This document shows, piece by piece, positions 18,013 to 45,050 of a stretch of 55,716 nt of DNA. The translations under genes and the position numbers were made by a program. The notes under the pieces were generated by a model. That model saw only the letters and a list, made by a program, of their open reading frames with translations, did no database searches and was not told the DNA's origin. Position 1 is the first letter of the stretch. Every line of letters begins with the position of its first letter. The DNA comes from a virus (taxonomy: Duplodnaviria > Caudoviricetes), in IMG/VR virus record IMGVR_UViG_3300025127_000047, positions 1 to 55,716 of that record; one strand, given 5' to 3'.

Positions 18013-19290
18013 ATGAATATAATAGAACTAGAAGATAACATTAAAGGCTTACCAGATAATAGTTTACAAAATGAAATGGTTAATCCTACTGGTATGTTTC
18101 CACAATACTTAGTTATGTCTGAATTGCAACGCAGACAAGAAATGCGTAAAGACTATCAAGGTCGTATGGCAGCTGAAGAAAAAACTCCTCCGCTTCCATC
18201 TATTCGTGAACAAATGATGGCAGGTATAACTCAACAACAACCAATAATGCAGGATAGCGGCATAGCAGGACTACTACCAGCTCAACCGCAAGGAGCACCA
18301 ATACCACCAACTATGTCCGCTAGTCCTGATGTAATGCCTATGTATGCTGGTGGAGTTGTGCGTATGAATACAGGTACACAAATACCTGATTTGTATGGTT
18401 TAACCACTGAAGAATTAAAATTAGCTGGTTTATATGATGACCCAAATACAGAAGAAGATGAAAGAATAACAAGTTATGAACAAGACATAATAGATTATTA
18501 TAAAACTTTACAAGAAGAACAACCTAAAAAAATAGCAGAAGAAAAAAGATTTGGAGAAGGTTTAAATTTAATGAAGGCAGGTCTTGCATTAGGTACTGCT
18601 GGTACATTTAAAGAGTTAAGTTCAGGATTAGAAAAAACTATAGATAGTATAGATGCAAGTAATAAAGCTATTTCTAAAAAAGAAGATGATTTGAAAAAAT
18701 CTAAATTAGAAAAAGCAAAAGCTATGGCTTCAATAGAAGCTAAAAGAACAGATAGATTAGCAGATTTATCTAAATTAAAAACTGAAAAACAAGCTAAACA
18801 AGCTTTGGCTGATTATTATAAATCTATGGACCCTAAAACTAAACTTAGTGGTCCGGGACAAATAGCTAAAGAAATATTAGATGGTGTATATGGACCACCA
18901 GAAAGTTTAAATATTTATAGAACAACAGATGCAGAAGGAAATGAACTTCCTAAACCAATTATTGATTCTAATAAATTATTAGAATTAGCAGCATCTAAAG
19001 TACCATCAATAGCTTCAGCAGATATTAGAACACTAGGTAGTAAACAAGAAGAACTAGCTAAATTAGTAACAGACCAAATGAGTAAATTTTCAACAATTCA
19101 AGAAGTAATTAATCTTGCAAAAGAAGAAAATATTAGTGAACAAGATGCATACGATAGAATTAAAATGAAAAAAGAACTTGAATTAAGAAAACAATTAGGT
19201 TTAGGTTCAGGAGCAGGTATGTATTCTGGTGGTGTTGTAGGTAAATCTTCTCAAAGTTTTAATGATGTGGTAAAAACCATCAATGCCTAA
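18013..19290 (+). CDS. Internal virion/ejection protein
   Basis: Helical charged protein lying between ejection genes; MYAGGVV and MYSGGVV motifs. Confidence 0.6.
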   Translation: MNIIELEDNIKGLPDNSLQNEMVNPTGMFPQYLVMSELQRRQEMRKDYQGRMAAEEKTPPLPSIREQMMAGITQQQPIMQDSGIAGLLPAQPQGAPIPPTMSASPDVMPMYAGGVVRMNTGTQIPDLYGLTTEELKLAGLYDDPNTEEDERITSYEQDIIDYYKTLQEEQPKKIAEEKRFGEGLNLMKAGLALGTAGTFKELSSGLEKTIDSIDASNKAISKKEDDLKKSKLEKAKAMASIEAKRTDRLADLSKLKTEKQAKQALADYYKSMDPKTKLSGPGQIAKEILDGVYGPPESLNIYRTTDAEGNELPKPIIDSNKLLELAASKVPSIASADIRTLGSKQEELAKLVTDQMSKFSTIQEVINLAKEENISEQDAYDRIKMKKELELRKQLGLGSGAGMYSGGVVGKSSQSFNDVVKTINA

Positions 19291-22200
19291 GTTTGTTCAA
19301 ACACCTGATGGAATAACACACCAGTTACCTGACAGTGTAACTGACGAAAACTATTTAGAAGAAAAAGAAAGATTTTTAGCTAACTATAATAAACCCCAAC
19401 TCCAAGAAGATTTCACTTCACAACCCCAACCCCAACCTCAATCTGAAATATCTACAGACTTACCCGGTCCTGCATTAATTGGTGCAAGTCTTTTAAGTAA
19501 TCTTGAAAAAAATGATGGAAGATTTTTTGATAGAAGAAATTATACTGAAGAAGATTTAGATAGAAGTGGTTTGTTATTACAAACAAGAGGTTCTTTTTCA
19601 AAATTATTTAGTGAGCAAGATGCTACTTACAATAGATTTAAAATATTAGAACAAATAGCAGAGTTAGAAAATGAAAGATTACAAATTTTATCTAAAGATG
19701 TTTTAACTGAAAAAGATAAAACTAGATTAGTTGAAATAGATAGATTAATAAATGAGGGAGAAGCACCAAATATTTCTGTAGAAGAAGCAGAAAAACAATC
19801 TATAAAAGAAGTTACAGATGCTATACCTTATATTCCTAATCCTGCTTTAATGGGCGACCCATCAGTTTATCAAGCAACTACTCTTAATCTTGCAGAAATA
19901 GAAAGAAATAAAAAACTTGGATTAAAAGATACATTAGCATACGAAACAGATAGAAGGGATAAATCTATAGAATTTCAATCAGGTATAAGATACTCTAAAA
20001 GTTTTGAAGACTTAGCTAGTGCTTCATCTTTTGATGAATCTATGGAAATATTTTTATCTGACCCATTAAGTTTAATGGGACAAGTGTTAGCTTCAAGTTC
20101 AGCACCAATGTCTGTATCTTTAACTTCTGGTGTTGTTGGAACTCTTTATGGGGGTCCAATAGTAGGTGCAGCAGCAACAGGTATTGCTTCTGGTTCAGTT
20201 GATGCAGTTTATTCTTTTACAGAATATATGCAAAAACAAGGTGTTGATATATACAATAATGATGATGTTGTAAAATTTTTACAAGACCCAGAAAAAGTAG
20301 CAGCTGCTAAAAAGTATGCAAGAACAAGAGCAACATTTATAGGTGCTTTTGATGCATTATCTTTTGGCTTAGGCTCTAAAATAATAGCACCTGCTAGAAT
20401 TGGTGGTGCTCATAGTAGAGCATTATTTAATTCATTAGTAGTTCAACCGCCATTACAAGGAACATTAGGTGGAGCAGGAGAATACTTTGCACAATTAAGT
20501 ACTTTAGAAGAAGGAGAGCAAATACGAGTTGGTGAAGTGTTTATGGAAGCTATAGGTGAATTAGCTTTTGCTCCTGTAGAAACAACACTAGCACAAGCAG
20601 GTACAGGATTTGCAGAATATAAAAGAATACAACAAGAAGCAATTCAAGAACAAAGAAAAAGATTTAAAAATTTTGAAACAAATTATGCAAACCTTACCCC
20701 AGAACAACAAAAAGCTATAGATGAAAAAGGTGCAGAAGTTTTTGAAAGAATACAAAATAATAATCCAGATAAATCTATAGAAGAAATTTTAGATTTAACA
20801 TATCAAGAATTACAAACAACCTTTGAAGCTTTTGAAGCTCGAAAAATTATTCAAGAAAATCCACTTGAAGATATTGCATACAATAAACTTGGAACAAGAA
20901 ATGAAGTTGTTTTTAAAGCAAATGAAGACGGAACTTTTAGTGTAGTAATTATAGATGAAAGACAGCCTAATAATTTAAAAATTCTTGGTACTTATAATGA
21001 AAAAGAAAAAGCAGCAAAAACTACTAGAGATTTAAACCATCAAATTAATACTTATGTAAATAGACAAACATTTCAAGAAGATGCAGTAATGCAAAACTTA
21101 AATCTTGATAATGAATTTGTAGAAGATTTTGCAAATGAAATATTAAATACTACTCTTGATGGTATATCTTTTGTAGATTTAGAAAGATTAGGGGTTGCTC
21201 CAGAAACTATAGCTCTTTTAAAAGACATAGCACAAAACGATTACACTGTACCGCCAAGTGTATTAAAAGCAAATTTATCTAAAAAACAATTTGATAAAGT
21301 AATGCAATCAAAAGCAGAAACTTTAAATGCTAAACCTAAAAAATCTATAGCAGGTACAGCTTTTAATACTTTATTAAAAAATAAAAATATTGAAAGTGAT
21401 ATTAATTCAGATAGTTTTAAAAGATTTGGATTGCATTTTGTTGGAGAACAAGATGTAAACAAAATGAGTGTAGCTCAAAAAAGAGTATTGTTTACTTTAT
21501 TAGATAACATACCAGCTTCTCCAGATAAAATAAATTTACCAGATTTTACTCCTAGAACTTTTAGTGTTGATGATTACAACAAAGCAAAAACAGAAATAGA
21601 AAATCAAGGTAAAGCTACATTAAAAATAATACAAGATGCAACAGGATTAAATAAAGTATCTGCAAAAAGAATAATGGAGTACTTTGTTACTGCTGGTTAT
21701 GTTAATAAAAAAGGTAACAAGTTTGAATTTGTTGGAACAGAAAATCAAATTTATAACTTAGATGGTACTCGTAGATTAACTTCAGATATAAATTTAAACA
21801 AAAGAATAAAGCGTATTGAAAAAATACTTGTTAATAATAATAAAATAAATCCAAATGTTCGTTCAAAAATAGCAACTTTTTTAGATGAACTTACAGACCC
21901 TAATATTAGAACAATAGCAGGTGGTAGTTATAATGCTACATTTAATGAAATACTTTATACAATAGATAGAGCAGACTTAAATTTATTAGATAAAAAATCA
22001 GACCAATATAATCCAAAAGAATTTTTAGCTACATATGCTAGATTACAAGGACACGAAAACTTTCATGCATTAGTAGAAGCAGGATTATTTACACAAGAAG
22101 AAATAAATGCACTTACAAAATTTGCAACTAATAAAAAAATAAGTAAAAAATATCAAGAAGCATTACAAAGAAAATTAAAAACAGAAGAAAAATATTCTGA

Positions 22201-25200
22201 TAAAACATATCTTGAATTTGCAACTGAACAATATACAGGTGTAGAAGGATATGAAAATCCTAATGATATATTAGAAGAAGCATGGGTTCATGCATTTGAA
22301 GACCTTATTACAACTAATGCAAAAATTACTGGCAGACCAAGAACAGCTTTAGAAAAAGTATCTAATTTTGCAAAAGCTGTAGGCAATGCTTTAGTAGGAA
22401 ATGGATTTTTTACAGTAGAAGATATTGTTGATAAAACATTACAAGGAAAAATAGCAGATAGAAATAGAGGTGTATCAAATAAAATTGAAAATACAAATAC
22501 AATATTTAATATACCTGAAGCAGAAGATGTAATTGTATCTGACCAACCAAGTGTTAAATATAGTGTAAACAGAAACTTATATTCTCAACAAAAAGAAGCA
22601 GAGATTATAAGAAACAAAATAAGTAATACACAAATAATATCAAGAAAATCAGATGGTACACCTATTTTAAATTGGGAACCTCAACTAACTTTAAATGTAT
22701 CTACTTTTATAGACAGCATTAAATTTAAAAATAATTCTGATATACGAGGTGCTGTAGGAAATAGTAACTTAAATATAATTTATTCTAAAATAATTAAATT
22801 ATTAAATAGACCTAAAGAAGAATTAATAAGTCAATATAATTTACAAGATAATGTTATTAATAATATATTAAATCCTATTCAATATAGTAGCCAACAAATA
22901 TTTGTTGAAGCAAATGAAATTTTTAGAAATTATTTACGAAATGAAAACATAGGTAATACAAGAACATTTAATCTAATGCCTTATAAAACATTAGAAGATG
23001 GTTATGAAGGTTTTGTTGTTGGTGAAAAAACAACTGATGCTAATAATTTATATTACAATCCTAGAATTTACAGCAGTCAAGCACAAGCAGAAAAAGCGTT
23101 AGAATCAAATGACGCACAATACAATCCTATACCTAATAGTAATATACAAAAAATTAGAAAGGTAAAGTTTTTTCCAAGAAATATAATTTTTAATCCAGCT
23201 TTATTAGGTTCTAAAGATGTTGAAAATAATTATCTTATTAGAAATCATAGTCCTAACAATATAACGGAGCCAACAACACAACTAATATTTAATAAATTTT
23301 TTGGAAACACTTCAGAATTACTTGTTACTAATGAAGTATTTGCTGGTGAGGTAGAAAGTTTTAATTTAGAAACTAATACACCAAAAATTAAATACTCTTT
23401 AAGAGAAACAAATGGTAGATTAATTGATGATGTAAAAGCAAAATTAGAAGAAGATTCTGGAGCTCCAACATTAGAAGGATATTTTGAACAATTATATGGA
23501 ACTGTTGCATCAATACCTCCAGCAGTAAAACAAATGTTAAGAGATGGGAGAGGAGAAGGTTCAGAATATATAGCACCATTAATGTCTTTAGGTCCAGAAG
23601 CTTTTGTAAAAACAAGAGTAGGCAAAAACACAGGTAAAGGAGTATTTTATTATGCCTTTGAATATCCAGAAGATTTAACTGTAAATCAAGCACAACAATT
23701 TTATGATGCTGTAAATTTTGTTACACAAGAATCTGTAAAATTATTTCCTGAAGAAGTGGTTGTTTATAGAGGAAGTCGTATAGATGATAGTTACAGTTTA
23801 ATTCCTACAACAACTAATAAAAGAATAGCAGAAGCTTTTGGAAAAAATTTAGATAGGAGAGATGAAAGAGTAGAAGAACTTTATTACGATAAAATAAGAG
23901 ATGGTGAAATAAGTTCAGACATAACTCTTGATGAGTTTAGAACAAATCTATTTAGTTCAAAAGGTAGCCCAAGAGATATAGCTAGATATGGTTATAATGT
24001 TCAAAGATTCCTTGTTCCTAAAGAAGCTATTGCAGTTAATATGAACGCTTTGTATAGAGGTGAATCTATACTTGGCGATGATGAAAGAAGTTTATTTTAT
24101 GATAGATATAATTATCAAAATGAACAAGAGCTTTTAATACCTACACAATTTTTAATTGATGATTATGGAGACACTAAAGGTACAGAAGTTTTAACTACGC
24201 ATCTTCAAGATGTTGCAAAAGAAAAAAGGGATAGAATTAGAATAGCAGATGATTTTGCAACTATAACATCTGGAAATTTTGCTGTTCCAAAAGACCAAGT
24301 AAAAACTTTAACCAGAACAGAACTATTAGATGCTAGGGGAGATTTAATAATCTTAGCTAATGACCCAAAGTATCAAACAAATTATGTAAGCGTAGAAGAT
24401 ATATATGAATTAGTAAATCACCCAGCTATGTTAGCTGTACAAAATGAGTCTTTAACTATTCCTGATGTTCTTGATAGTTTAACTTCTGAACAAGTAAATA
24501 AAAGAATAGAAGATATGCGACCTGATTTAATTCGTATAGCTGAAGAATATGCAGGTGGTAATTTAAAATTTGATAAACAAGCAATATTAATAATTGGACC
24601 ACCGGGCACAGGTAAGTCAACATTTGCTGAAGATATAGCAGAAAGAAAAGGTTATGCAATAGTTGATGCTGATGATGCTAAAAAACAAATGCCTGAATTT
24701 AAAAATGGTGTAGGTGCTAACGCTACACACCCATTTTCAAAATTAGTTGCTACTCAAATTCAACAAGAATTTATAGAACAAGGTGCAAATATAATAATTC
24801 CAAAAGTTGCTGGTAAGTCAAGTCGAATAACAGGTAAACCAAAAACAACAGGCATTATAGATACAATAATAGATTTACAAGCAAGAGGATATAAAGTAGA
24901 TGTTGTGTATCCAGATGCTAATATAAATCAAGCAATAATAAGAAATGTTACTAGGTATGGTGAAACAGGAAGATTTGTAAACCTTGATTATTTATTATCT
25001 ATTGATAATAAAGTAAGAGATAGTTATAACATAATAAAAGATTATTTTATTAATGAAAATAAAGGTAGGTATCCTGATATTGGTTTTACATATATTAATA
25101 ATAATTATAAATTAGGAGAGCACATTGTCGAAGAAGATACATCACAATTATTTCAAGACGATAGAGTCGTTGATGAAAGCAGAGGAAGAAGCAGAAAAGG

Positions 25201-28132
25201 CAGGGAGGGAACTTTACCCAAAAATGAAATCACAGAGGAACAAAATGCCCTTGTTGAAATTGCTAAAGAGCAAGAACAAAACTCAATAGAAGCAGGTGTA
25301 ACTCCTGTAATAAATACTAATGCTTCCCCTAGTGCTGTAGCCGCAGCAGTAAAAGCACAACAAGAAATTAAAAATAGTTCGTCTGAAAATAATGCAGATG
25401 TAGATTCTATTCTTTCTGATATACCTAATGATACTAAAATTAAATATTCATTTAATAGAAGTAACAAACCTTTAAATAAAAATGCTGAAGATTTAATAGA
25501 AAATTTAACAGTAAGAGATGACACTATTGAAAATAAAACTACCGGTCAACTTATACTAGAAGGTTTTAAACCAGTAGACCCATTAGCATTTAGAGAAGCT
25601 TTCTTAGACCAGTATGCAAGATTAGCTGAAACAGATTATAAAGCAGGTAGAAAAAATAAATACGGAGATAAGATGTTGCTTGGCAGTATGTCTGCAGGTG
25701 CAGCATTATATTTTTCTGATAGGTCAGGAGATATATTTCAACAAGCATTTTTAAGAGGTGTACCTGTATATGATAAAGATAAAGGATATACCTATGTAAC
25801 TAATGTATCTCCTATAGATGGTAAACCTATAGTTCCATTCTTTGATGTATTCAAACCAGCTTATAAAAATCCTAATTTGCTTTGGGCTTTTCAAGCAGTG
25901 CAAAGAGTTAAAAGAGAAACAAGATTTAACAAAGAAGGAAGAAAAGTAAAAGTAACAGCAGTTGATAGAAAAAGAGCTAAACAAGCTTTAAAAGATTATC
26001 CTGAATTACAAACCATGATTGATGAATATAACAGAACTAATGAACATACAGTTCAATTCTTAATTGATACAGGTGTATTAGATGAACAAACAGGTAAAGA
26101 ATGGTTAGCAAATTCAGATTACATTCCTTTTTATAGACCACTTGAAGGAGTTGAAGGATTTAAAGGACCAAAAATATTTCAAGGTTTATCTATAACTCCA
26201 TTTCAAAGAGCAAAAGGTAGTGAAGAAAAAGATATTGTTGACCCAATAACAGGCATTACAAATAATTTAAGAGCAGCTATAAATTTAGGTATGAAAAATA
26301 TAGCAGCTAATAGAGTAATGCGTAACTTTGTAGACATGGATATAGCTAAGAGAGTTAAAGGTAATGTTAAAGGACCAGACATTGTTACGATAAGAGTTAA
26401 TGGTAAAAATGTAAACTATAAAGTAGATGACCCAATGTTATATCAATCTTTTAGTGTTATGAGTCAAGGAGACTTTGCACCACAAGGATTGCTTATGAAT
26501 ATATTAAGAGGAACTAAAGGATTTGTAAGTGATTTAATTACAAGAGTTCCTGACTTTTGGTTTAGACAAATAGTAAGAGACTCTGCGTCTGCTTATGTTT
26601 TAAGTGGTGCTAATTATGTACCAATAATATCTTCTATTAAAGAAAGTATGAGTATAGCTAAAGGAATGATTACCGGTAATCTTCCAGATGAGTTTGTAAA
26701 ATTAAGAAATGCAGGAATAATTACAGGCTATGACAAAGGTGTAAGAGATATAGATAGTACTGAAAAACTTATAAATGGTTTATATAAAAATGCTTTTAAA
26801 AGTGAAAGACCATTAGCACAAAAAGTTTATATGTTTCCTATAGATTTATTAACTACTATATGGGACATAATGGGACAAGGTACAGCTATAACAGATGCTG
26901 CTACTAGAGTTGCTGTATATAAAGACACATTAAAAAGAACAGGCAATGAAGCTGAAGCTATATTCCAAGCATTAGAAGTTTTAAACTTTACAAGGCGTGG
27001 TAATAATCAGATGTTTCAATTATATGCACAGTCAACTATGTTTTTAAATCCAAGACTGCAAGGACTAGATGTTTTTTATAGAGGACTAACAGGAAGATAT
27101 GGTATAGGTAAAGGTTTATCAAGAAGTAAAAGAATGAAAGCTGTAATGATGAGAGTTGCAGCTATGGCTTCTTTATCTGTATTTTATTATTTATTAGCAA
27201 GAGACTCTGAAGAATATGAAGAAGCACCTGAAGAAATAAAGGATGCTTATTTAATTATTCCGGGCAGTAAAAAATTAGTTGGACAACCAATAGCTATACC
27301 TAAACCTTTTGAAGTAGGACTACTAACAATGACTATTCCCGAAAGGCTTACCTCTTATGCTATGGACGATATAGCAGGTAAAGATGTCGCAGATAGTTTA
27401 AAAAGAAATATAACTCATACTCTTGCAATAACACCACCAACAGCAGTTGACCCATTATTAGAAAACTTTTTTAACTATGATTTCTTTACAGGTAGACAAA
27501 TAGTACCTGATTATTTAGAGGGTACAGGAGACTTAGCATACAGACCACAAACAGATACTCTATCTAAAGTTATAGGAGATGAGTTAAACATAAGTCCTTT
27601 GTATGTAGAAAATTTATTTAGAAGTTATACTGGAACATTAGGCTCTTGGATTATGATGGCAACAGATAGTTTAATTAGAGAAGGTTTAACAGATGCAGAA
27701 AGAGTAAAGTTTGGACTCGACAGACTTCCAGTTGTAGGAACTTTTCTTTTACCAGCAGAGGGAAGCAACTATGAAAATCAATTCTATAGTTTAAAAGGAG
27801 ATGTTGATGATTTAGTTGCAACATTTAGACAGATAGAAAGTAATGTTGTTGATAAAGGAGATGGGTACGCTTTAGGAATGATTGATGAGTATAAGATAGA
27901 ATATCAAGATGCGTTAAAAGATTTACAGTCAGAGCTTACAGATACAGCCGACCAACTTAAAGAAATAAGAAACTTAGAATCTCAAATAATTAATAGCACA
28001 ACCCTTTCTTCCGAAGAAAAGAAAAGACAACTAGATAATATAAAGTCTATTAAGAATGATTTATTAAAAGGAATACCAGAACAACGCAAGTTTTATCTGG
28101 AAGAATTTAAAGAAAGAGCTGTAGTAAGATAA
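19283..28132 (+). CDS. Giant (2949 aa) polyvalent virion/ejection protein: hydrophobic helices, winged-helix, HExxH peptidase, ART-like, zeta-toxin-like kinase, LPD38-like C-terminus
   Basis: GHENFHAL..EEAW; VYRG..PTTTNKRIAEAF..NEQELL; GPPGTGKS..DADDAKK; YIPFYR, LNFTRRG..MFLNPRLQGLD, IPKPFEVG, NYDFFTGRQIVP. Confidence 0.85.
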   Translation: MPKFVQTPDGITHQLPDSVTDENYLEEKERFLANYNKPQLQEDFTSQPQPQPQSEISTDLPGPALIGASLLSNLEKNDGRFFDRRNYTEEDLDRSGLLLQTRGSFSKLFSEQDATYNRFKILEQIAELENERLQILSKDVLTEKDKTRLVEIDRLINEGEAPNISVEEAEKQSIKEVTDAIPYIPNPALMGDPSVYQATTLNLAEIERNKKLGLKDTLAYETDRRDKSIEFQSGIRYSKSFEDLASASSFDESMEIFLSDPLSLMGQVLASSSAPMSVSLTSGVVGTLYGGPIVGAAATGIASGSVDAVYSFTEYMQKQGVDIYNNDDVVKFLQDPEKVAAAKKYARTRATFIGAFDALSFGLGSKIIAPARIGGAHSRALFNSLVVQPPLQGTLGGAGEYFAQLSTLEEGEQIRVGEVFMEAIGELAFAPVETTLAQAGTGFAEYKRIQQEAIQEQRKRFKNFETNYANLTPEQQKAIDEKGAEVFERIQNNNPDKSIEEILDLTYQELQTTFEAFEARKIIQENPLEDIAYNKLGTRNEVVFKANEDGTFSVVIIDERQPNNLKILGTYNEKEKAAKTTRDLNHQINTYVNRQTFQEDAVMQNLNLDNEFVEDFANEILNTTLDGISFVDLERLGVAPETIALLKDIAQNDYTVPPSVLKANLSKKQFDKVMQSKAETLNAKPKKSIAGTAFNTLLKNKNIESDINSDSFKRFGLHFVGEQDVNKMSVAQKRVLFTLLDNIPASPDKINLPDFTPRTFSVDDYNKAKTEIENQGKATLKIIQDATGLNKVSAKRIMEYFVTAGYVNKKGNKFEFVGTENQIYNLDGTRRLTSDINLNKRIKRIEKILVNNNKINPNVRSKIATFLDELTDPNIRTIAGGSYNATFNEILYTIDRADLNLLDKKSDQYNPKEFLATYARLQGHENFHALVEAGLFTQEEINALTKFATNKKISKKYQEALQRKLKTEEKYSDKTYLEFATEQYTGVEGYENPNDILEEAWVHAFEDLITTNAKITGRPRTALEKVSNFAKAVGNALVGNGFFTVEDIVDKTLQGKIADRNRGVSNKIENTNTIFNIPEAEDVIVSDQPSVKYSVNRNLYSQQKEAEIIRNKISNTQIISRKSDGTPILNWEPQLTLNVSTFIDSIKFKNNSDIRGAVGNSNLNIIYSKIIKLLNRPKEELISQYNLQDNVINNILNPIQYSSQQIFVEANEIFRNYLRNENIGNTRTFNLMPYKTLEDGYEGFVVGEKTTDANNLYYNPRIYSSQAQAEKALESNDAQYNPIPNSNIQKIRKVKFFPRNIIFNPALLGSKDVENNYLIRNHSPNNITEPTTQLIFNKFFGNTSELLVTNEVFAGEVESFNLETNTPKIKYSLRETNGRLIDDVKAKLEEDSGAPTLEGYFEQLYGTVASIPPAVKQMLRDGRGEGSEYIAPLMSLGPEAFVKTRVGKNTGKGVFYYAFEYPEDLTVNQAQQFYDAVNFVTQESVKLFPEEVVVYRGSRIDDSYSLIPTTTNKRIAEAFGKNLDRRDERVEELYYDKIRDGEISSDITLDEFRTNLFSSKGSPRDIARYGYNVQRFLVPKEAIAVNMNALYRGESILGDDERSLFYDRYNYQNEQELLIPTQFLIDDYGDTKGTEVLTTHLQDVAKEKRDRIRIADDFATITSGNFAVPKDQVKTLTRTELLDARGDLIILANDPKYQTNYVSVEDIYELVNHPAMLAVQNESLTIPDVLDSLTSEQVNKRIEDMRPDLIRIAEEYAGGNLKFDKQAILIIGPPGTGKSTFAEDIAERKGYAIVDADDAKKQMPEFKNGVGANATHPFSKLVATQIQQEFIEQGANIIIPKVAGKSSRITGKPKTTGIIDTIIDLQARGYKVDVVYPDANINQAIIRNVTRYGETGRFVNLDYLLSIDNKVRDSYNIIKDYFINENKGRYPDIGFTYINNNYKLGEHIVEEDTSQLFQDDRVVDESRGRSRKGREGTLPKNEITEEQNALVEIAKEQEQNSIEAGVTPVINTNASPSAVAAAVKAQQEIKNSSSENNADVDSILSDIPNDTKIKYSFNRSNKPLNKNAEDLIENLTVRDDTIENKTTGQLILEGFKPVDPLAFREAFLDQYARLAETDYKAGRKNKYGDKMLLGSMSAGAALYFSDRSGDIFQQAFLRGVPVYDKDKGYTYVTNVSPIDGKPIVPFFDVFKPAYKNPNLLWAFQAVQRVKRETRFNKEGRKVKVTAVDRKRAKQALKDYPELQTMIDEYNRTNEHTVQFLIDTGVLDEQTGKEWLANSDYIPFYRPLEGVEGFKGPKIFQGLSITPFQRAKGSEEKDIVDPITGITNNLRAAINLGMKNIAANRVMRNFVDMDIAKRVKGNVKGPDIVTIRVNGKNVNYKVDDPMLYQSFSVMSQGDFAPQGLLMNILRGTKGFVSDLITRVPDFWFRQIVRDSASAYVLSGANYVPIISSIKESMSIAKGMITGNLPDEFVKLRNAGIITGYDKGVRDIDSTEKLINGLYKNAFKSERPLAQKVYMFPIDLLTTIWDIMGQGTAITDAATRVAVYKDTLKRTGNEAEAIFQALEVLNFTRRGNNQMFQLYAQSTMFLNPRLQGLDVFYRGLTGRYGIGKGLSRSKRMKAVMMRVAAMASLSVFYYLLARDSEEYEEAPEEIKDAYLIIPGSKKLVGQPIAIPKPFEVGLLTMTIPERLTSYAMDDIAGKDVADSLKRNITHTLAITPPTAVDPLLENFFNYDFFTGRQIVPDYLEGTGDLAYRPQTDTLSKVIGDELNISPLYVENLFRSYTGTLGSWIMMATDSLIREGLTDAERVKFGLDRLPVVGTFLLPAEGSNYENQFYSLKGDVDDLVATFRQIESNVVDKGDGYALGMIDEYKIEYQDALKDLQSELTDTADQLKEIRNLESQIINSTTLSSEEKKRQLDNIKSIKNDLLKGIPEQRKFYLEEFKERAVVR

Positions 28133-39325: not shown

Positions 39326-40206
39326 TAATCAAAGTACCCCACTTTTTTATCTAAATCAGAAACAATATCTTTAGCTGTATCAGATAATTCTTTTGCTAAT
39401 TCTTTATCATCTCTAACTTTATCTGCTGTTAAATCTCTGCTATAGAATGTATCCATAGCTTTTTGATGTACTGCTTGAATACTGGCATCTCCATTGATAT
39501 TCAATGCAGGAAGCACTTCGCAAAGTTCGATAAGCTTTTCAACAGTTTTATCTCTAAATGTTTCTCCGCTATCAATCTTATCTGCAAAGTGTTTGCACAC
39601 ACCTTTAACCTTATCAACAACCGCACCAGTTATCTTTTCAACCTTTGCATCTTCTTCTGCTTTGGCATTAGCTTTCAACTCTGCTATCTCATTAGCAGGT
39701 AAGTTCACTCTAATATCATCACTAGATGGGATAGGTTTCTTGTAAATACTACATTCAAATAAACCCTCTATCTCATCTCTATCAGGGAAGTCAGAAAGAT
39801 TAAATGCAGTACCCAAATCAGTCTTAGCTTCTGCAACAATACTGTCATATTGTTTTACAAAATCTTTTACTAATTTTTCTCTGTCATTTTGATAACCAGT
39901 AAAATCTTTTTCAAACCTATCTTTTAATTCAATAGGTAATAAATAAGTTCCTTGATTATCCCATGCCAAACAATAACCGCTATAACCTGCACCGCTATAG
40001 ATAACATCAGTTCTTATCTTGCCATCAATCTTTTTGATTTCTTTCAAGATAGGACTGTTAGTAAGCTTTTTGTTTACAGTCAGTCTTGTCTCATCAATAG
40101 AATGATTATCAGCTAATTCATCTCTCAATGATTTATCAGTTTTAACACCACTCCACTTTTTTAAATTAAGTTCAATGAGTAATGCTTTATCTCTTAATTG
40201 AGCCAT
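39325..40206 (-). CDS. DUF3150-like protein
   Basis: WSG.K.D, L.WDN.G..LLP, LG..FN..DFP; lies between the MoxR and vWA genes. Confidence 0.65.
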   Translation of the reverse strand: MAQLRDKALLIELNLKKWSGVKTDKSLRDELADNHSIDETRLTVNKKLTNSPILKEIKKIDGKIRTDVIYSGAGYSGYCLAWDNQGTYLLPIELKDRFEKDFTGYQNDREKLVKDFVKQYDSIVAEAKTDLGTAFNLSDFPDRDEIEGLFECSIYKKPIPSSDDIRVNLPANEIAELKANAKAEEDAKVEKITGAVVDKVKGVCKHFADKIDSGETFRDKTVEKLIELCEVLPALNINGDASIQAVHQKAMDTFYSRDLTADKVRDDKELAKELSDTAKDIVSDLDKKVGYFD

Positions 40207-40248
40207 AAGTTCTCCTTAAATATTAATTGGTTAATAGATAAGGGGCTG

Positions 40249-41250
40249 TTAAGCCCCAATATCTTGATATTCAATTTCGTAGTCAATGTACGCTTTTGTT
40301 TTCTTCAAGCCCTCATCTCTAGCAGTAGCCATAGTCATAGCCATAACTAAAAATTCATCTTGAATTTCTTCAGTATCTTTCAAGAAATCATAGTACTTTT
40401 GGATATTGTTCTTGTTCATGTTTTTAGCTAGAACACCAACAATCAGATAAATCACATCAGATTGAAGTTCAATATCTTCAAGCACACTTTCAGGATTTTT
40501 GACTAAGTTATCAACATCAGGTAAGTTTCTGAATCTTCTCACAAATGCTGTAAACTCTGCGGAAATACCCTCTCCAATAGCACCTGCATAAAGTTCTTGC
40601 TCTATGTCGCTATCAGGGTCAGTAGCAAGTAAATTACTTGTATATTCCCATGCTCTAGGCGTTGCATTGACTGAAGCATTTTTATCAAAATGATATAAAT
40701 AATCTTCGCCTTGCCATGAAATAAAAGACAACACTTCTTGTCTTATTCTTCCAGTTTTACCGCCCCACTCAATCCACTCATCATGGCATACATCTAAGTT
40801 CAAATGAACAAATCTGTCTCCAAGAGCAGTATTGACTCTATTTGCACCTGCTTTGTCTTGCACTCTATTACCCGCACTTACAATCACAGTATCTTCAGGC
40901 AATGTGTATTCGCCAAGCTTTCTATCCTTAATCAACTGAAACAATGCGTTTTGCACAGATGGACTGCCTTGCGGAAGTTCATCAAGAAACAACAATGTTT
41001 TAGGCTGTTCATTACTAGGTAAAAATACAGGCGGATTAAAAACAGTTCTTCCATCTTTAACACTAGGTACACCTCTAAGGTCAACAGGGTCAAGTAAGGC
41101 AACCCTTACATCTTCAACCCTGTATCCCAAGTTTTCAGCTACTTTGTGGACAATCTCTGATTTACCCACTCCAACTCCACCCCATATAAAACAGGGCTGT
41201 TTGATAGAGATTAATTTCTCTATCGTTTTTTCTAATTGCTTTGCTTTCAT
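40249..41250 (-). CDS. MoxR-like AAA+ ATPase
   Basis: WGGVGVGKS, DPVDLRGVP, LLFLDEL, SAGNR, DRFVH, TPRAWE; start moved to ATG 41250. Confidence 0.9.
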   Translation of the reverse strand: MKAKQLEKTIEKLISIKQPCFIWGGVGVGKSEIVHKVAENLGYRVEDVRVALLDPVDLRGVPSVKDGRTVFNPPVFLPSNEQPKTLLFLDELPQGSPSVQNALFQLIKDRKLGEYTLPEDTVIVSAGNRVQDKAGANRVNTALGDRFVHLNLDVCHDEWIEWGGKTGRIRQEVLSFISWQGEDYLYHFDKNASVNATPRAWEYTSNLLATDPDSDIEQELYAGAIGEGISAEFTAFVRRFRNLPDVDNLVKNPESVLEDIELQSDVIYLIVGVLAKNMNKNNIQKYYDFLKDTEEIQDEFLVMAMTMATARDEGLKKTKAYIDYEIEYQDIGA

Positions 41251-41258
41251 ATTTACTC

Positions 41259-41402
41259 CTATAAAATTATTAAAGCCACTACAACAAGTACTAAGGCTAT
41301 AGGCTTTAGCACATACCAATTTATTCTAAACAAAAGACTTTCACTGCATTGTTTAGCAAAGTCTTTTTTGAATAGATTCCATTCTTTTTTAAATGTTTCC
41401 AT
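41259..41402 (-). CDS. Small membrane protein (METFKKEW...IALVLVVVALIIL)
   Basis: 47-aa ORF read manually; GGAG RBS; hydrophobic C-terminus. Confidence 0.6.
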   Translation of the reverse strand: METFKKEWNLFKKDFAKQCSESLLFRINWYVLKPIALVLVVVALIIL

Positions 41403-41442
41403 ACTTACTCCAGTAGAAACTAATTAATTTTTCTAAATAAAA

Positions 41443-41497
41443 ATACTGTTTCGTGGTATCTCATTCAGCTACAACTACCAATGTTGTAGGACAGTAT
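41443..41497 (-). ncRNA. Type III hammerhead ribozyme with variant core CUGAAUGA and loop I-loop II pseudoknot
   Basis: AUACUGU-C-CUACAAC-AUUGGUA-GUUGUAG-CUGAAUGA-G-AUACCA-C-GAA-ACAGUAU: 7-bp stem III, GUC site, 7-bp stem I, UGGUA/UACCA pseudoknot. Confidence 0.85.
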
Positions 41498-41597
41498 AAA
41501 AAAAAAGTAAGTACTTACTATCAGGAAAGATAAGGGGCTACAGCCAATATGAATAATAGCTTTTAGGAAAGCCATAGCCCCACATCTTTACAAAAGA

Positions 41598-41825
41598 TTA
41601 ATCAAAGTTAGCAACCCAACTTTGCTTTGTTTTGCCACTAGGAAGCTTTACTGCTTCTGCTTCGATAACATAATCCGCTTCAGCCAATATGTGTATCGTA
41701 TCAAACGATAATGTTTTACCGCCTTGTATTTTCAGGAACATTTTTGCAGTATCACAAACTGGATAATACAAAGTTCTTCCATACACCTTTTCAGGTCTTA
41801 CAATTATTTTAGTTTTTGTTTCCAT
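41598..41825 (-). CDS. Small early protein (VYGRTLYYPVC..AK.F..I.G.KTL)
   Basis: ORF with TAGGAGTAAAT RBS. Confidence 0.65.
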   Translation of the reverse strand: METKTKIIVRPEKVYGRTLYYPVCDTAKMFLKIQGGKTLSFDTIHILAEADYVIEAEAVKLPSGKTKQSWVANFD

Positions 41826-41833
41826 ATTTACTC

Positions 41834-42079
41834 CTATGTAAATTTTTTATCAAGTTGCCATAAATTAAATACTTTCATAGCATCTTCTCTAGTCAATCCT
41901 AGACTTCTTCTATTTAAAAAGAACTCTCTAGGGTCATTTTCGGGTACATCTTCAAGATGTTCGTATGTTGTCATGCCACTAGATAATTCTTCTAATTCTA
42001 GTGTAGACCACGCAATTTGTGATGAACTTGTAATAGTATCATCATTCAGATATTGCTCTGCTGTATATCCATATTTCAT
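41834..42079 (-). CDS. Small early protein
   Basis: ORF with AAGGAGTAAAT RBS. Confidence 0.6.
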   Translation of the reverse strand: MKYGYTAEQYLNDDTITSSSQIAWSTLELEELSSGMTTYEHLEDVPENDPREFFLNRRSLGLTREDAMKVFNLWQLDKKFT

Positions 42080-42081
42080 AT

Positions 42082-42396
42082 TTACTCCTTATTTATTCTT
42101 CCATAGTTATTAGCTTCAAGGCTTTTGACATACGCTATTGTTTCTGCAACCTCATCTGCTGTTTGATAGCTTTGAACATCATCTCCCTTGTATTTTAAAA
42201 ACTTTCCATTTGGTTTAAATATTGCTGTCTCACAATTATTACAGCTATCTAAACTGTGAAGATTGCTTTTAGCTAGAAATTTATTTGAACAATAGTTTAT
42301 TCTGCCAAATTGAATAGATACCTCATATCCATTTTCAAAAGACATATTTAAGCCTAGATAAAGTCCTTCTTTATCATCTTTTCTTATTTTTAACAT
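42082..42396 (-). CDS. Small early protein (F.NGYEVSIQFG..NYCSN)
   Basis: ORF with TAGGAGT RBS. Confidence 0.65.
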   Translation of the reverse strand: MLKIRKDDKEGLYLGLNMSFENGYEVSIQFGRINYCSNKFLAKSNLHSLDSCNNCETAIFKPNGKFLKYKGDDVQSYQTADEVAETIAYVKSLEANNYGRINKE

Positions 42397-42416
42397 ACTT
42401 ACTCCTATAAAAATTT

Positions 42417-42477
42417 ACCTAGAAAGCGAACAAATGTCCGCTTTTTCGCCACCTTTCTGTGTTGCTTATCAATAGGT
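42417..42477 (-). ncRNA. Type I hammerhead ribozyme with C3U/G8A compensatory core
   Basis: ACCUA-UUGAUAA-GC(AA)CAC AGAAAG GUGGC-GAA-AAAGCGGAC AUUU GUUCGCUUU-C-UAGGU; all three stems pair; UUC site. Confidence 0.8.
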
Positions 42478-42480
42478 TTA

Positions 42481-42876
42481 TTAGAAATTTCTATCGTACA
42501 TTTCTTGCGTTTCATATCTATCGTGAACAGGTAGATATTTAGGTATTGGATAACCAACAAATGCTTTTAATTGTTGACAAATATCAAATGGTATTTCAGC
42601 AATTACTCCATTATTCATAGCACCAATTAAATTAGGTCTATCTTCGTTATATGGCTTCAAATGAAAGCCAAATTGTCTTCTATACTCTAATTTATAAAGA
42701 TTTTTATTATTTTTATCTTCTTCAGCAGTAGCACAATATTTGCTAAAAACCAGTTCATCTTTTCTATCTTCATTATTCCAGTCTATTTCTTTTGAAATCA
42801 CTATCTCATCAAGCCCATTGGTATAACCTTTGCTACCATATTTTGATGTAGTGATTGTTGCTGTATTAAAACTCAT
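42481..42876 (-). CDS. Early hypothetical protein
   Basis: ORF with TAGGAGTAAAT RBS; C-terminal LPVHDRYE. Confidence 0.65.
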   Translation of the reverse strand: MSFNTATITTSKYGSKGYTNGLDEIVISKEIDWNNEDRKDELVFSKYCATAEEDKNNKNLYKLEYRRQFGFHLKPYNEDRPNLIGAMNNGVIAEIPFDICQQLKAFVGYPIPKYLPVHDRYETQEMYDRNF

Positions 42877-42909
42877 ATTTACTCCTATAAAAATTAATAT
42901 ATTTACCTA

Positions 42910-43173
42910 TTAAGAAATCCATTTTTGTAAGTTTGGATTATCTTCGCCTTTCATTCCATGATGTTCACAATATAATTTCATTGCACTGTCAATTCTTCTG
43001 TCAACACTACGTTTCAGTTCTTCTCTACTCCAAAAGTGCATTTTCATAGCACCATTCAGCCCCATGTATGAAACACTTTTTACATTACCATTGAATGTTG
43101 TGTCTCTATGCACATTGAAATAAAACCCTCTGTAATTCACAACAAAATCGTTTACTTTAGTTATTTTATTCAT
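42910..43173 (-). CDS. First gene of the early operon, hypothetical
   Basis: Start moved to ATG 43173 behind TAGGAGTAAAT. Confidence 0.6.
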   Translation of the reverse strand: MNKITKVNDFVVNYRGFYFNVHRDTTFNGNVKSVSYMGLNGAMKMHFWSREELKRSVDRRIDSAMKLYCEHHGMKGEDNPNLQKWIS

Positions 43174-43188
43174 ATTTACTCCTAAATA

Positions 43189-43248
43189 AATTATGTTTCT
43201 TGTACCCTTGCGGATACTCATTCAGCTTGTTAATTCAAGGACATAATC
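43189..43248 (-). ncRNA. Type III hammerhead-like ribozyme, variant (CUGAAUGA core, AA insert before GAAA)
   Basis: GAUUAUGU-C-CUUG AAUUAA CAAG-CUGAAUGA-GUAUCC GCAA GGGUAC-AA-GAA-ACAUAAUU. Confidence 0.7.
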
Positions 43249-43279
43249 AAATATTAAATCGTTAATACATAAGAAAAAA

Positions 43280-43725
43280 AACTCACAACAGCATGGGATT
43301 TTCTGACTACACACAACACCTATTAGCCCCTAGAGATAGACTTTGCTACACCATCAGAATTAGCACTTTTACTGCTACGCCCTGTTCCATGTTCTGTGGG
43401 AACTAAAGCCAACTTTAAAAACTCCATCAAGGGTAGAGTCGCCACACTCTCCGCAAGACAGGTATTGAGCCATCAATAGCAACACTGTCAGGACACTGGG
43501 TAAACGCACAAACTTTTGAAAAGCGGATTTTTCGTGATAGGGATTCCCAGTTTACCCTGTTCTGTTTGCTTCCTTGATACCTTGCATTGCTCTAGGCAAC
43601 CCAAATCGTTAGTCTTTATTGCAAAGCCCAACTTCAAGGAAACTAGATGTCTCACTATGGGTGTTTTGGAAAGGGGAGTTAGCTACTGTTTCTTCGCTTT
43701 TTTGGGTCTCATCAATCCCTCAACG
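43280..43725 (-). ncRNA. Candidate large structured non-coding/leader RNA (about 430-450 nt)
   Basis: More than 10 complementary segments in nested multibranch arrangement; ends pair (43295-43300 with 43714-43719); mismatches read as G-U on the minus strand; directly downstream of a promoter. Confidence 0.65.
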
Positions 43726-43731
43726 AAACGA

Positions 43732-43761
43732 ACTATAGTTTATTGTGGGGTATCGTGTCAA
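43732..43761 (-). promoter_or_regulatory. Sigma70-like early promoter TTGACA-N18-TATAGT
   Basis: Perfect -35 (43761-43756), TATAGT -10 (43737-43732), AT-rich upstream tract. Confidence 0.7.
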
Positions 43762-43803
43762 GAAAAAAGTGTAATTATTTTCTACAAATGTTCGTGAACA
43801 TAT

Positions 43804-43833
43804 TTGTTGTTGCTTACGAAGTAAGCGTATAAT
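43804..43833 (+). promoter_or_regulatory. Probable terS promoter: TATAAT at 43828-43833 preceded by the palindrome GCTTAC-GAA-GTAAGC
   Basis: Perfect -10, weak -35; inverted repeat 43812-43826. Confidence 0.4.
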
Positions 43834-43897
43834 AGACCTACAGTGATAGTAAGCACTATCAAAATAATTTTAAATATTAAGGAATTAATAGATAGAT

Positions 43898-44368
43898 ATG
43901 AGCAATAAAGACAGTAATAACAAGGACAATATAACTAACATATCAGGGCTTACTCCAAAGCAAGAGAAGTTCGTTCAAGGTGTCTTATCAGGTATGACAG
44001 CAAGTGAGTCATATCGCAACGCATATAGCACAGAGAACATGAAAGATAGTAGCGTATGGACAGAAGCTTCAAAGCTTATGAGTAGCCCTAAGGTATCCCA
44101 AAGGGTAAAGCAGGGATTGAAGCGAAAGAATGAGTATGCTTCCACTACAGGGCTCTCCCTTAGACAGATGGTACTGGAACAGCTACAAAAGGAAGCACTG
44201 GATACAAATAACAATGAATCATCAAGAATAAGGGCTTTGGAACTACTAGGCAAAGTATCAGAGGTGGCATTATTCACAGAGAGATTAGAAACAACTACAA
44301 GCAATCAATCATCAGATGAGATAAGACTGGAACTAGAACAGAAGATACAGTCAATGTTTAATAAGTAA
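43898..44368 (+). CDS. terS: Terminase small subunit
   Basis: LTPKQEKFV......ASESYRNAY...ASKLM..PKV..., RIRALELLGK. Confidence 0.85.
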   Translation: MSNKDSNNKDNITNISGLTPKQEKFVQGVLSGMTASESYRNAYSTENMKDSSVWTEASKLMSSPKVSQRVKQGLKRKNEYASTTGLSLRQMVLEQLQKEALDTNNNESSRIRALELLGKVSEVALFTERLETTTSNQSSDEIRLELEQKIQSMFNK

Positions 44369-44495
44369 GTACTCACTATCAGGGAAACCCTTTTTGCATA
44401 TGGATTTACCCCACCTACCCCCACCCACCCACATATAAAAAAATTGTGTGTATGGGGTACATACTATTTTGCACATATAATTTCATAATTTTCAT

Positions 44496-44514
44496 AGGGG
44501 GGTACCCCTTTTTT
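44496..44514 (+). terminator. Intrinsic terminator candidate AGGGG-GGTA-CCCCT-TTTTT
   Basis: GC stem plus T tract downstream of terS. Confidence 0.5.
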
Positions 44515-44534
44515 ATTTTCGGCTAACTTGCAGA

Positions 44535-44567
44535 TTGCGTTTTTATAGGAATGTTCGTATAATGTTC
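44535..44567 (+). promoter_or_regulatory. Promoter TTGCGT-N17-TATAAT overlapped by GTTC-N7-GTTC (alphaproteobacterial LexA-box pattern)
   Basis: -35 at 44535-44540, -10 at 44558-44563, GTTC at 44553 and 44564; immediately upstream of the LexA-like gene. Confidence 0.6.
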
Positions 44568-44598
44568 TAGGGTCCCATACGAGGGGGGTATATATATT

Positions 44599-44853
44599 AT
44601 GACAAGTAAACAATTAAAACTTTTAGAAACCATAGAAGAATACTGGGACGAGTTTGGTTGCGGTCCTAGTCTTGATGCTTTAGCTGACGCTTTAGGTTTA
44701 TCCTCTAAGAGCACCATACACGCTATGCTACATAGATTAAAAGATGGTGGCTGGGTTACTATGCAACCTAATAGATGGCGTACAGTGATGAGCACTAGAA
44801 ACAGTCCATTTAAAAAAGTTGAAAAAACTATTGACGAATCTGTGAAGGTATGA
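44599..44853 (+). CDS. LexA-type winged-helix DNA-binding protein lacking the peptidase domain
   Basis: MT.KQ..LL..I.......G.GPS...LA.ALGL.SKSTIH..L..L...GW......R.R. Confidence 0.85.
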   Translation: MTSKQLKLLETIEEYWDEFGCGPSLDALADALGLSSKSTIHAMLHRLKDGGWVTMQPNRWRTVMSTRNSPFKKVEKTIDESVKV

Positions 44854-45050
44854 AACTATGTCCATAATAGGGTATATTGCCCCTAGTGATTTACTAAAGA
44901 GTAATACACTAGATTTTAGTTTATATAGTATTATTACTAGAGCTAGTAATATACTAGGTAGTTTTTGCGGTATCTTTATACTGTTATATTCATTATATTT
45001 ACTCCTCTACTATTTACTTACTCCAGTAGAATTTAAAGGTGCCGCAATTT

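Follow-up and report, generated by a model that had tools for sequence, protein, structure and literature searches.

The locus described here raises the question of whether an RNA element that has the stems, the cleavage site and every conserved letter of a type III hammerhead ribozyme, together with one core nucleotide too many, is a genuine and maintained hammerhead or something else. That core is generally regarded as near-invariant, and the 7-nt sequence CUGANGA is built into search descriptors and Rfam models alike. The window (the whole stretch of 55,716 nucleotides that was analysed) contains two elements with an 8-nt core. Its IMG/VR record (55,716 b) is rated 96% complete and so represents a complete or near-complete genome, the large terminase of which is nearest to those of the Pelagibacter phages HTVC027P and HTVC023P, the marine phage 023Pt_psg01 and DSL-LC04 (~53-57% at the amino acid level). 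The datasets listed as containing the region include no RNA run; the metagenomes with its DNA come chiefly under marine labels and in some cases under wetland ones. A nucleotide search of window positions 40000-45000 against GenBank phages gave no match, and a pattern running from the core to GAAAC had one match across the records of the four cultured relatives named above. Among other features of the window, a single ORF of 2,949 aa occupies 19283-28132 on the plus strand, and a search of the window for tRNAs detected none.

Two hammerhead folds in a leftward operon

Copy 1 (41443..41497, minus strand, 55 nt), a type III element of the family defined below as type A, was recognized by a descriptor scan, its minimum free energy (MFE) fold and its conservation. 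From 41497 to 41443 it reads, 5'->3', AUACUGU-C-CUACAAC-AUUGGUA-GUUGUAG-CUGAAUGA-G-AUACCA-C-GAA-ACAGUAU. The 5' strand of stem III, AUACUGU (41491..41497), forms 7 bp with ACAGUAU (41449..41443), and the stem I hairpin (41469..41489) consists of CUACAAC (41489..41483), loop I AUUGGUA (41482..41476) and GUUGUAG (41475..41469), likewise with 7 bp. The 8-nt core CUGAAUGA (41461..41468) stands where the canonical sequence is CUGANGA, and is followed by a stem II (41453..41460) of one pair, G 41460 - C 41453 (G10.1-C11.1), which closes loop II AUACCA (41459..41454). The remaining strand (41443..41452) contains GAA (41452..41450) and the 3' half of stem III; it reads C-GAA-A after stem II, with G12 A13 A14 following that stem directly. 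The cleavage site is GUC with C17 at 41490, and cleavage is predicted 3' of C17, between 41490 and 41489. The UGGUA of loop I (41480..41476) is complementary to the UACCA of loop II and could form a candidate pseudoknot of 5 bp. Stems I and III are recovered in the MFE fold.

Copy 2 (43189..43248, minus strand, 60 nt) is a type III element of the type B family, was found by the same descriptor scan and has a three-way junction as its MFE fold. Its sequence from 43248 to 43189 is, 5'->3', GAUUAUGU-C-CUUG-AAUUAA-CAAG-CUGAAUGA-GUAUCC-GCAA-GGGUAC-AA-GAA-ACAUAAUU. Here stem I (43226..43239, CUUG/CAAG) has 4 bp and the loop AAUUAA, the core lies at 43218..43225, and stem II (43202..43217, GUAUCC/GGGUAC) has 6 bp and a GCAA loop. 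The site is again GUC, with C17 at 43240 and predicted cleavage between 43240 and 43239. An extra AA (43200..43201) separates C11.1 of stem II from G12; this second departure from the canonical arrangement, absent from the first-pass annotation of the window, is a hallmark of type B that is independent of core length. Neither a loop-loop pseudoknot nor any other contact between the stems or loops I and II was identified in copy 2.

The first-pass annotation had described for copy 1 perfect 7-bp stems I and III, a GUC site, one G-C pair in stem II and complementary loops UGGUA and UACCA, all of which are present on the minus strand, and had noted that the 8-nt core recurs at 43189-43248 among different stems, as it does: both copies read CUGAAUGA. 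The letters of the hammerhead core are complete in both (C3 U4 G5 A6, G8 A9, G12 A13 A14, A15.1-U16.1 and C17). What neither copy contains is the exact 7-nt core, since the six conserved letters occur in order around a doubled variable position. MFE folds and covariation agree on a three-helix junction in which stems I and II are closed by loops and stem III is open.

Both hammerheads lie inside a minus-strand gene block that heads leftward from a sigma-70-like promoter (43761..43732, TTGACA-18-TATAGT), which by its consensus match alone (11 of 12 positions) is the candidate driver of the operon. Copy 2 is located ~480 nt downstream of this promoter and directly 5' of the operon's first ORF (42910..43173, minus strand, 87 aa), for which a comparison with PHROG gave no match and whose Shine-Dalgarno sequence (SD), AGGAG, is 6 nt past stem III. 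The first ORF 3' of copy 1 encodes 47 aa with a hydrophobic C-terminus (41259..41402, minus strand); its SD, GGAG, begins at 41411, 31 nt past stem III, and the next gene (41250..40249, minus strand) is that of an ATPase (phrog_1297, E 3.3e-83). Each of the two copies is therefore followed by an SD and an ATG.

Several other minus-strand features were noted in the same block. The ORF-poor leader of ~470 nt that extends from the promoter to copy 2 (43262-43735) is 85-90% conserved in the relatives L008, L009 and L012; as a candidate structured RNA it was rejected, with no match in Rfam and a fold (z +0.46) no better than that of shuffled sequences. Directly 5' of copy 1, a weak hairpin, AGUAA-GUAC-UUACU, is followed by a run of 8 U (41498..41519) and looks terminator-like by eye; a consensus terminator scan made no call there, and in relative L004 the hairpin is retained with the U run down to four. 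Between this hairpin and the ORF at 41598..41825 there is a long G+C-rich hairpin (~41530-41575, GGGGCUAUGG ... CUGUAGCCCC) that is also present in L004 (about 3690-3740). An intergenic element at 42399-42480, between the ORFs 42481..42876 and 42082..42396, occurs once in the window, includes the hairpin GAAAG..GCGAA..UUCGC..CUUUC, and shares 94-98% identity with L008 and L009, as compared to 73-86% for the adjoining sequence. Its contig depth is 95x and 67x in runs X1 and X4, versus ~26x and 6x around it, and it is therefore common to other, more abundant genomes.

The frequency with which such elements would arise by chance was estimated with a descriptor composed of U-H at the cleavage site, stems I and III of >=4 bp each, a core of 7 or 8 nt, a closing pair of stem II and GAAA. 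Over the window this descriptor, which was also run in a looser version, finds exactly two sites, copies 1 and 2; on simulated windows the mean is 0.125, and 2 of 200 reach two sites. The bare word CTGAATGA has 5 sites in the window as compared to 2.16 expected, a number reached by 6 of 100 shuffles and not significant; the remaining sites (42042, 45587 and 53734) lie inside ORFs, show no other hammerhead features and were set aside. Folding energies, with z-scores of -1.12 (copy 1) and -2.25 (copy 2), are weakly informative. Both cores are spanned without an indel by Logan contigs of four sequencing runs, each from a different study and some possibly the window's own source, and the presence of the extra base in contigs of four runs excludes a sequencing error.

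Relatives, covariation and the pseudoknot

The first close relative, L004/L008, was reached through the ATPase encoded downstream of copy 1 (88% aa). In L004 the copy 1 homologue carries a compensatory change from C-G to U-A in stem I, and the copy 2 homologue in L008 has the core CUGAACGA, in which the extra A is kept and position 7 has changed from U to C. Both ribozymes, each with an 8-nt core, are found in L009 and L012, so that copy 1 is conserved in L004/L008, L009 and L012 and copy 2 has homologues in L008, L009 and L012.

Larger numbers of relatives were collected from IMG/VR by pattern scans that were anchored at loop I and left the 5' strands of stems I and III and the cleavage site free. 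Type A was defined by a 7-bp stem I, the loop AUUGGUA, a stem II of 1-2 bp and an ACC-containing loop II. Its scan returned 66 stretches, 48 of them unique, and all 48 are well-formed in the sense of having at least 6 of 7 stem I positions paired, U-H at the cleavage site and at least 3 bp in stem III. Together with the window there are 50 unique type A sequences, with 36 distinct 5' strands of stem I, and pairing in stem I extends to 349 of 350 cells, where sets with shuffled partners average 211 and do not exceed 236. All 50 retain the A15.1-U16.1 pair, and at H17 there are 36 with C, 14 with U and none with G.

Type B was defined by a 4-bp stem I, the loop AAUUAA, a stem II of 6-9 bp and AA before GAAA. 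At least 114 stretches matched; among the matches listed, 90 are unique, 61 of which have 4/4 stem I pairs and U-H, while the other 29 have 0-2 stem I pairs, a bimodal distribution by which real and chance matches separate cleanly. These 61 well-formed sequences among the matches listed have 10 distinct stem I sequences, C in 60 and U in one at H17, never G, and the extra AA before G12 in 60 (a separate count gave 59 of 60), with either a 7- or an 8-nt core. As a negative control the type B pattern was run against 185,579 prokaryote genomes, where it gave 10 stretches, none of them well-formed (0-2 of 4 stem I pairs). No family-wide pairing partner was found for the type B loop AAUUAA or for the extra AA, as loop I is conserved and loop II varies.

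Other hammerhead-like elements came to light in the course of these searches. L021, L026, L031, L035, L037 and L040 belong to another family in IMG/VR, CUGAUGAG-AUCA-GAAAC, in which the palindrome GAUC occurs instead of stem II, an arrangement that would suit pairing between two molecules or the lack of a stem II; several of its members have record numbers near those of the window's relatives. Several hammerheads can also lie near one another on a contig: in L028, two canonical type III copies of nearly the same sequence are separated by 486 nt.

Compensatory changes were scored in two alignments of 8-nt-core members exclusively, A1 (copy 1 type) and A2 (copy 2 type). With the caveat that part of their members had been chosen by a filter (stem I >=4 bp, stem III >=3 bp), a bias of which the loop-anchored scans are free, A1 has 9 pairs changed on both sides and a covariation score of 0.464, versus 0.189 in shuffled alignments, and A2 has 6 such pairs and a score of 0.273, versus 0.084; none of 500 shuffles reaches the observed value in either case, and both scores are also well above slid controls. 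In A1, both-side changes occur at 6 of 7 pairs of stem I, with 100% of cells paired, and there is covariation at 3 of 7 pairs of stem III; the G-C pair of stem II is retained in 9 of 9. In A2, stem I has both-side changes at 3 of 4 pairs and stem II has one pair changed on both sides (U-A to A-U) and one single-side change, again with 100% of cells paired in each stem. The G-U pairs in the stems are compatible with the minus strand only, which is the strand of the genes. Such changes within alignments composed entirely of 8-nt cores mean that the structure has been maintained after the insertion arose. As read from alignments, this covariation proves a conserved fold, not catalysis.

The pseudoknot of copy 1 is a different matter, for although 89.6% of its cells are paired in A1, the pairs are invariant within the AUUGGUA group and hence uninformative either way. 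Complementarity of 3-5 bp between loops I and II exists in all 48 type A relatives, and the two partners vary in step from one subgroup to another (UGGUA/UACCA, UUGGU/ACCAA, UGGCUA/UAGCCA and UGGC/GCCA). For copy 1, the complementarity and these joint changes point to the loop-loop pseudoknot that the first-pass annotation had proposed as a candidate contact; it does not extend to copy 2, which has no pseudoknot.

Neither copy reaches the gathering threshold of the current Rfam models. The whole window gave no matches at the gathering threshold, and a 5-kb scan by E-value gave no hammerhead. Searched alone, 81 nt around copy 1 matched Hammerhead_3 with 16.6 bits (E 0.18), as compared to a gathering threshold of 48.5 (RF00008); the alignment extends over the full length of the model (positions 1-54), places the fifth base of the core in an insertion behind CUGA and shows stem II as deleted. 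Copy 2 with its leader (601 nt) had no Rfam match at E<=10. Siblings with canonical cores were also missed at the gathering threshold (9 of the 12 loci scanned are canonical-core loci), so the failure is not specific to the extra base, and both families, being missed even with canonical cores, appear to lie outside current models. Rfam does call two Hammerhead_II ribozymes elsewhere in L337 (8710-8774 and 8962-9030, minus strand), a contig that also carries a type A ribozyme.

Core length at position 7

Both families contain a mixture of core lengths. Among the 50 unique type A sequences, 29 have a 7-nt core, with C (13), U (8) or A (8) as N7, and 21 have an 8-nt core, with AU (17), UU (3) or AC (1) in its place. 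The 61 well-formed type B sequences among the matches listed divide into 40 with a 7-nt core (U 23, A 14, C 3) and 21 with an 8-nt core (AU 18, AC 3). A scan that allowed any two letters in the core (CTGANNGA) with the flanks of the window's family found a real stem I in 9 of 27 unique sequences (AU 7, AC 2); the other 18 are chance matches. Three type A members, L344, L351 and L356, have the 8-nt core CUGAUUGA, so that the doubled position 7 is not limited to A followed by a pyrimidine.

The two core lengths alternate in ribozymes that are otherwise identical or homologous, as in L253 versus L056 and L326 versus L114, and the canonical core of L039 and the 8-nt core of L016 occupy a homologous site with identical flanks. 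The existence of siblings with and without the extra base implies that the 8-nt core is a frequent length polymorphism at position 7 which, as judged from these sequences, is distributed within two families and is not a separate class with an architecture of its own. The first-pass annotation had argued for a real variant class rather than a sequencing error. The variant is real, as the contigs from four runs and the covarying 8-nt relatives attest, and the word class has to be given up in favour of polymorphism within families of mixed core length. The pattern search of viromes that had been suggested at the same time did bring such cores to light in IMG/VR, in 21 of the 50 sequences of type A and, among the matches listed, in 21 of the 61 of type B. 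By descent and by every core letter, these elements are hammerheads, and the expansion of position 7 by one nucleotide is natural, frequent and evolutionarily maintained.

With 34-42% of the unique members (for type B, of the matches listed) having 8 nt and a fold that is still under purifying selection, either an additional nucleotide is much less harmful to the core than a single assay of 2011 suggested or the phages keep a ribozyme that is slower or differently regulated. Natural sibling pairs that differ by the extra base alone are ready-made controls for experiments.

Proposed function and comparison with known hammerheads

We consider it probable that both copies are type III hammerheads that act upstream of genes in the leftward operon and are able to cleave themselves 3' of C17. 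Each would be transcribed from the minus strand as part of a longer RNA, in an untranslated stretch just before a gene, and would fold into a three-stem hammerhead junction in which two nucleotides (A-U) take the place of the single variable N7. In copy 1, one G-C pair and the 5-bp pseudoknot between loops I and II would stand in for a real stem II; copy 2 joins a 4-bp stem I, whose loop AAUUAA is conserved, to a stem II of greater length. Self-cleavage, predicted to follow C17 at 41490 and 43240, would separate an upstream RNA with a 2',3'-cyclic phosphate end from an mRNA with a 5'-OH terminus, at the head of which stands the stem I hairpin. The second core-adjacent insertion of copy 2 (AA before G12) counts against this explanation, as do the Rfam scores short of the gathering threshold and the low activity of the one natural insertion after A6 that was assayed in 2011 (PMC3088659).

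A more specific use is suggested by the relatives of copy 2. Among the type B matches listed, 57 of 62 have GGAG and a start codon within 45 nt downstream, and 42 of 62 have CUCC 5' and GGAG 3' of stem III, as compared to 0 with the motifs swapped as a control. In those 42 of 62, stem III continues into a CCUCC/GGAGG helix that pairs the SD with an anti-SD, for example in L007, L010, L056 and L253. Such a buried SD suggests that cleavage in these type B relatives would detach the anti-SD strand and thereby unmask the ribosome-binding site. The same role was considered and rejected for the window's two copies, where the predicted probability that the SD is unpaired barely differs between cleaved and uncleaved RNA and the CUCC/GGAG arrangement is absent. 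With no sequestration of the SD and hardly any predicted change in its accessibility, we infer for these two copies self-cleavage that would serve simply to process or insulate the polycistronic transcript. The position before ribosome-binding sites, together with the pairing of the SD in many relatives, provides a concrete candidate function for phage and bacterial hammerheads.

A broader proposal, which we put forward tentatively and as less likely than not, is that position 7 is naturally a linker of 1-2 nt, that ribozymes with CUGA-AU/AC/UU-GA might be fully functional and that they make up at least a third of two abundant marine-phage families missed by models. Phages may then be able to toggle between 7 and 8 nt by a single-base indel and in this way tune the cleavage rate or metal dependence, and with it the release or translation of mRNA. 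A related reading, a sub-case of the explanation that we prefer and on its own rather doubtful, is that ribozymes with the 8-nt core are active under certain conditions or have been re-tuned, for example to a different metal-ion preference or a slower rate, and in them the one-base indel would be a switch that sets the release of downstream mRNA. It is consistent with the occurrence of near-identical 7-nt and 8-nt pairs, with the retention of the 8-nt core in both ribozymes of the window, L008, L009 and L012, and by analogy with the natural A6C hammerhead of phage Bcep176, which works poorly with Mg2+ and well with Mn2+ (PMC7151607); the polymorphism could equally be neutral.

It is unlikely that the conserved elements are hammerheads crippled in catalysis, in which the extra core nucleotide (together with the AA in copy 2) leaves little or no cleavage and the fold is kept as an insulating or stabilising structure of the 5'-UTR or as a site for a protein or an RNase. 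The low activity that the main text of the 2011 study gives for a natural A6a insertion (PMC3088659) would fit this reading, as would the facts that covariation speaks for the fold alone and that the accessibility of the SD in the window's copies is predicted to be the same with and without cleavage. The catalytic nucleotides, however, are invariant in all 8-nt-core members (in the columns of A1 and A2), which is unexpected because lost catalysis would not preserve them. Moreover, the two core lengths replace each other inside one and the same family, on many distinct stems and with an 8-nt share of 34-42% (for type B, among the matches listed), and position 17 stays C or U and is never G. Finally, chance resemblance or a sequencing or assembly artefact, for which one might cite the lack of significant enrichment of CTGAATGA and the unremarkable folding energy of copy 1, has a negligible probability in the face of two descriptor sites where 0.125 are expected, concordant contigs from four runs and dozens of covarying relatives, the last two of which refute it.

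The preferred reading, that of self-cleaving type III hammerheads with an expanded position 7, can be placed among systems already described. With the type III hammerhead of Rfam (RF00008, clan CL00010) the two copies share an open stem III, the CUGA..GA and GAAA strands, A15.1-U16.1 and GUC; they differ in that the core has 8 nt, not 7, that stem II is a single pair in copy 1 and has an extra AA behind it in copy 2, and that their scores are far under the gathering threshold. RiboJ is an engineered insulator, in which the variable 5' leader is removed by a hammerhead placed immediately before the SD. The type B relatives likewise have a hammerhead before an SD, natural in their case and synthetic in RiboJ; in this comparison the window's own two copies are those that leave the SD unsequestered. 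For bacterial and phage ribozymes in general, transcript processing is a role that a review of 2019 describes as suggested and undemonstrated, calling the biology undefined (PMC6765202).

Phage hammerheads with a non-consensus core have been described before. That of Bcep176 is, like the two copies, a phage intergenic hammerhead with a change beside position 7, and it is active, with a preference for Mn2+ over Mg2+; the change is a substitution (A6C) in one phage, in contrast to an insertion in populous families here (PMC7151607). The hammerheads of halophiles, from hypersaline archaea and metagenomes, have, as do the present ones, a longer than usual core strand joining stems I and II, and in the main text of the 2011 paper their insertions are near C3, at the end of stem I and not at position 7 (PMC3088659). 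In a literature search whose coverage excluded most subscription journals, CUGAAUGA was not found in connection with hammerheads, the sole relevant match for a hammerhead 'A6a' was Perreault et al. 2011, and no description of these families or of a populous 8-nt-core group was encountered.

The closest precedents are thus those of Perreault et al. 2011 (PMC3088659), whose main text reports hammerheads in phage intergenic regions, where they flank phage genes, and pseudoknots in ~40% of hammerheads of all three types. The same text describes a stem II that is often of two pairs and in one case of a single pair, as well as a natural insertion after A6 ('A6a') that had low activity and was judged detrimental to the core (PMC3088659). 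The departures of copies 1 and 2, namely the A6-adjacent insertion, the one-pair stem II and the pseudoknot, each have a counterpart there, and what is new is the commonness and the conservation of the 8-nt variant: as compared by the main-text description, A6a is rare in that collection (PMC3088659), whereas in the present families 21 of the 50 sequences of type A and, among the matches listed, 21 of the 61 of type B have the 8-nt core, together with covariation of the stems around it.
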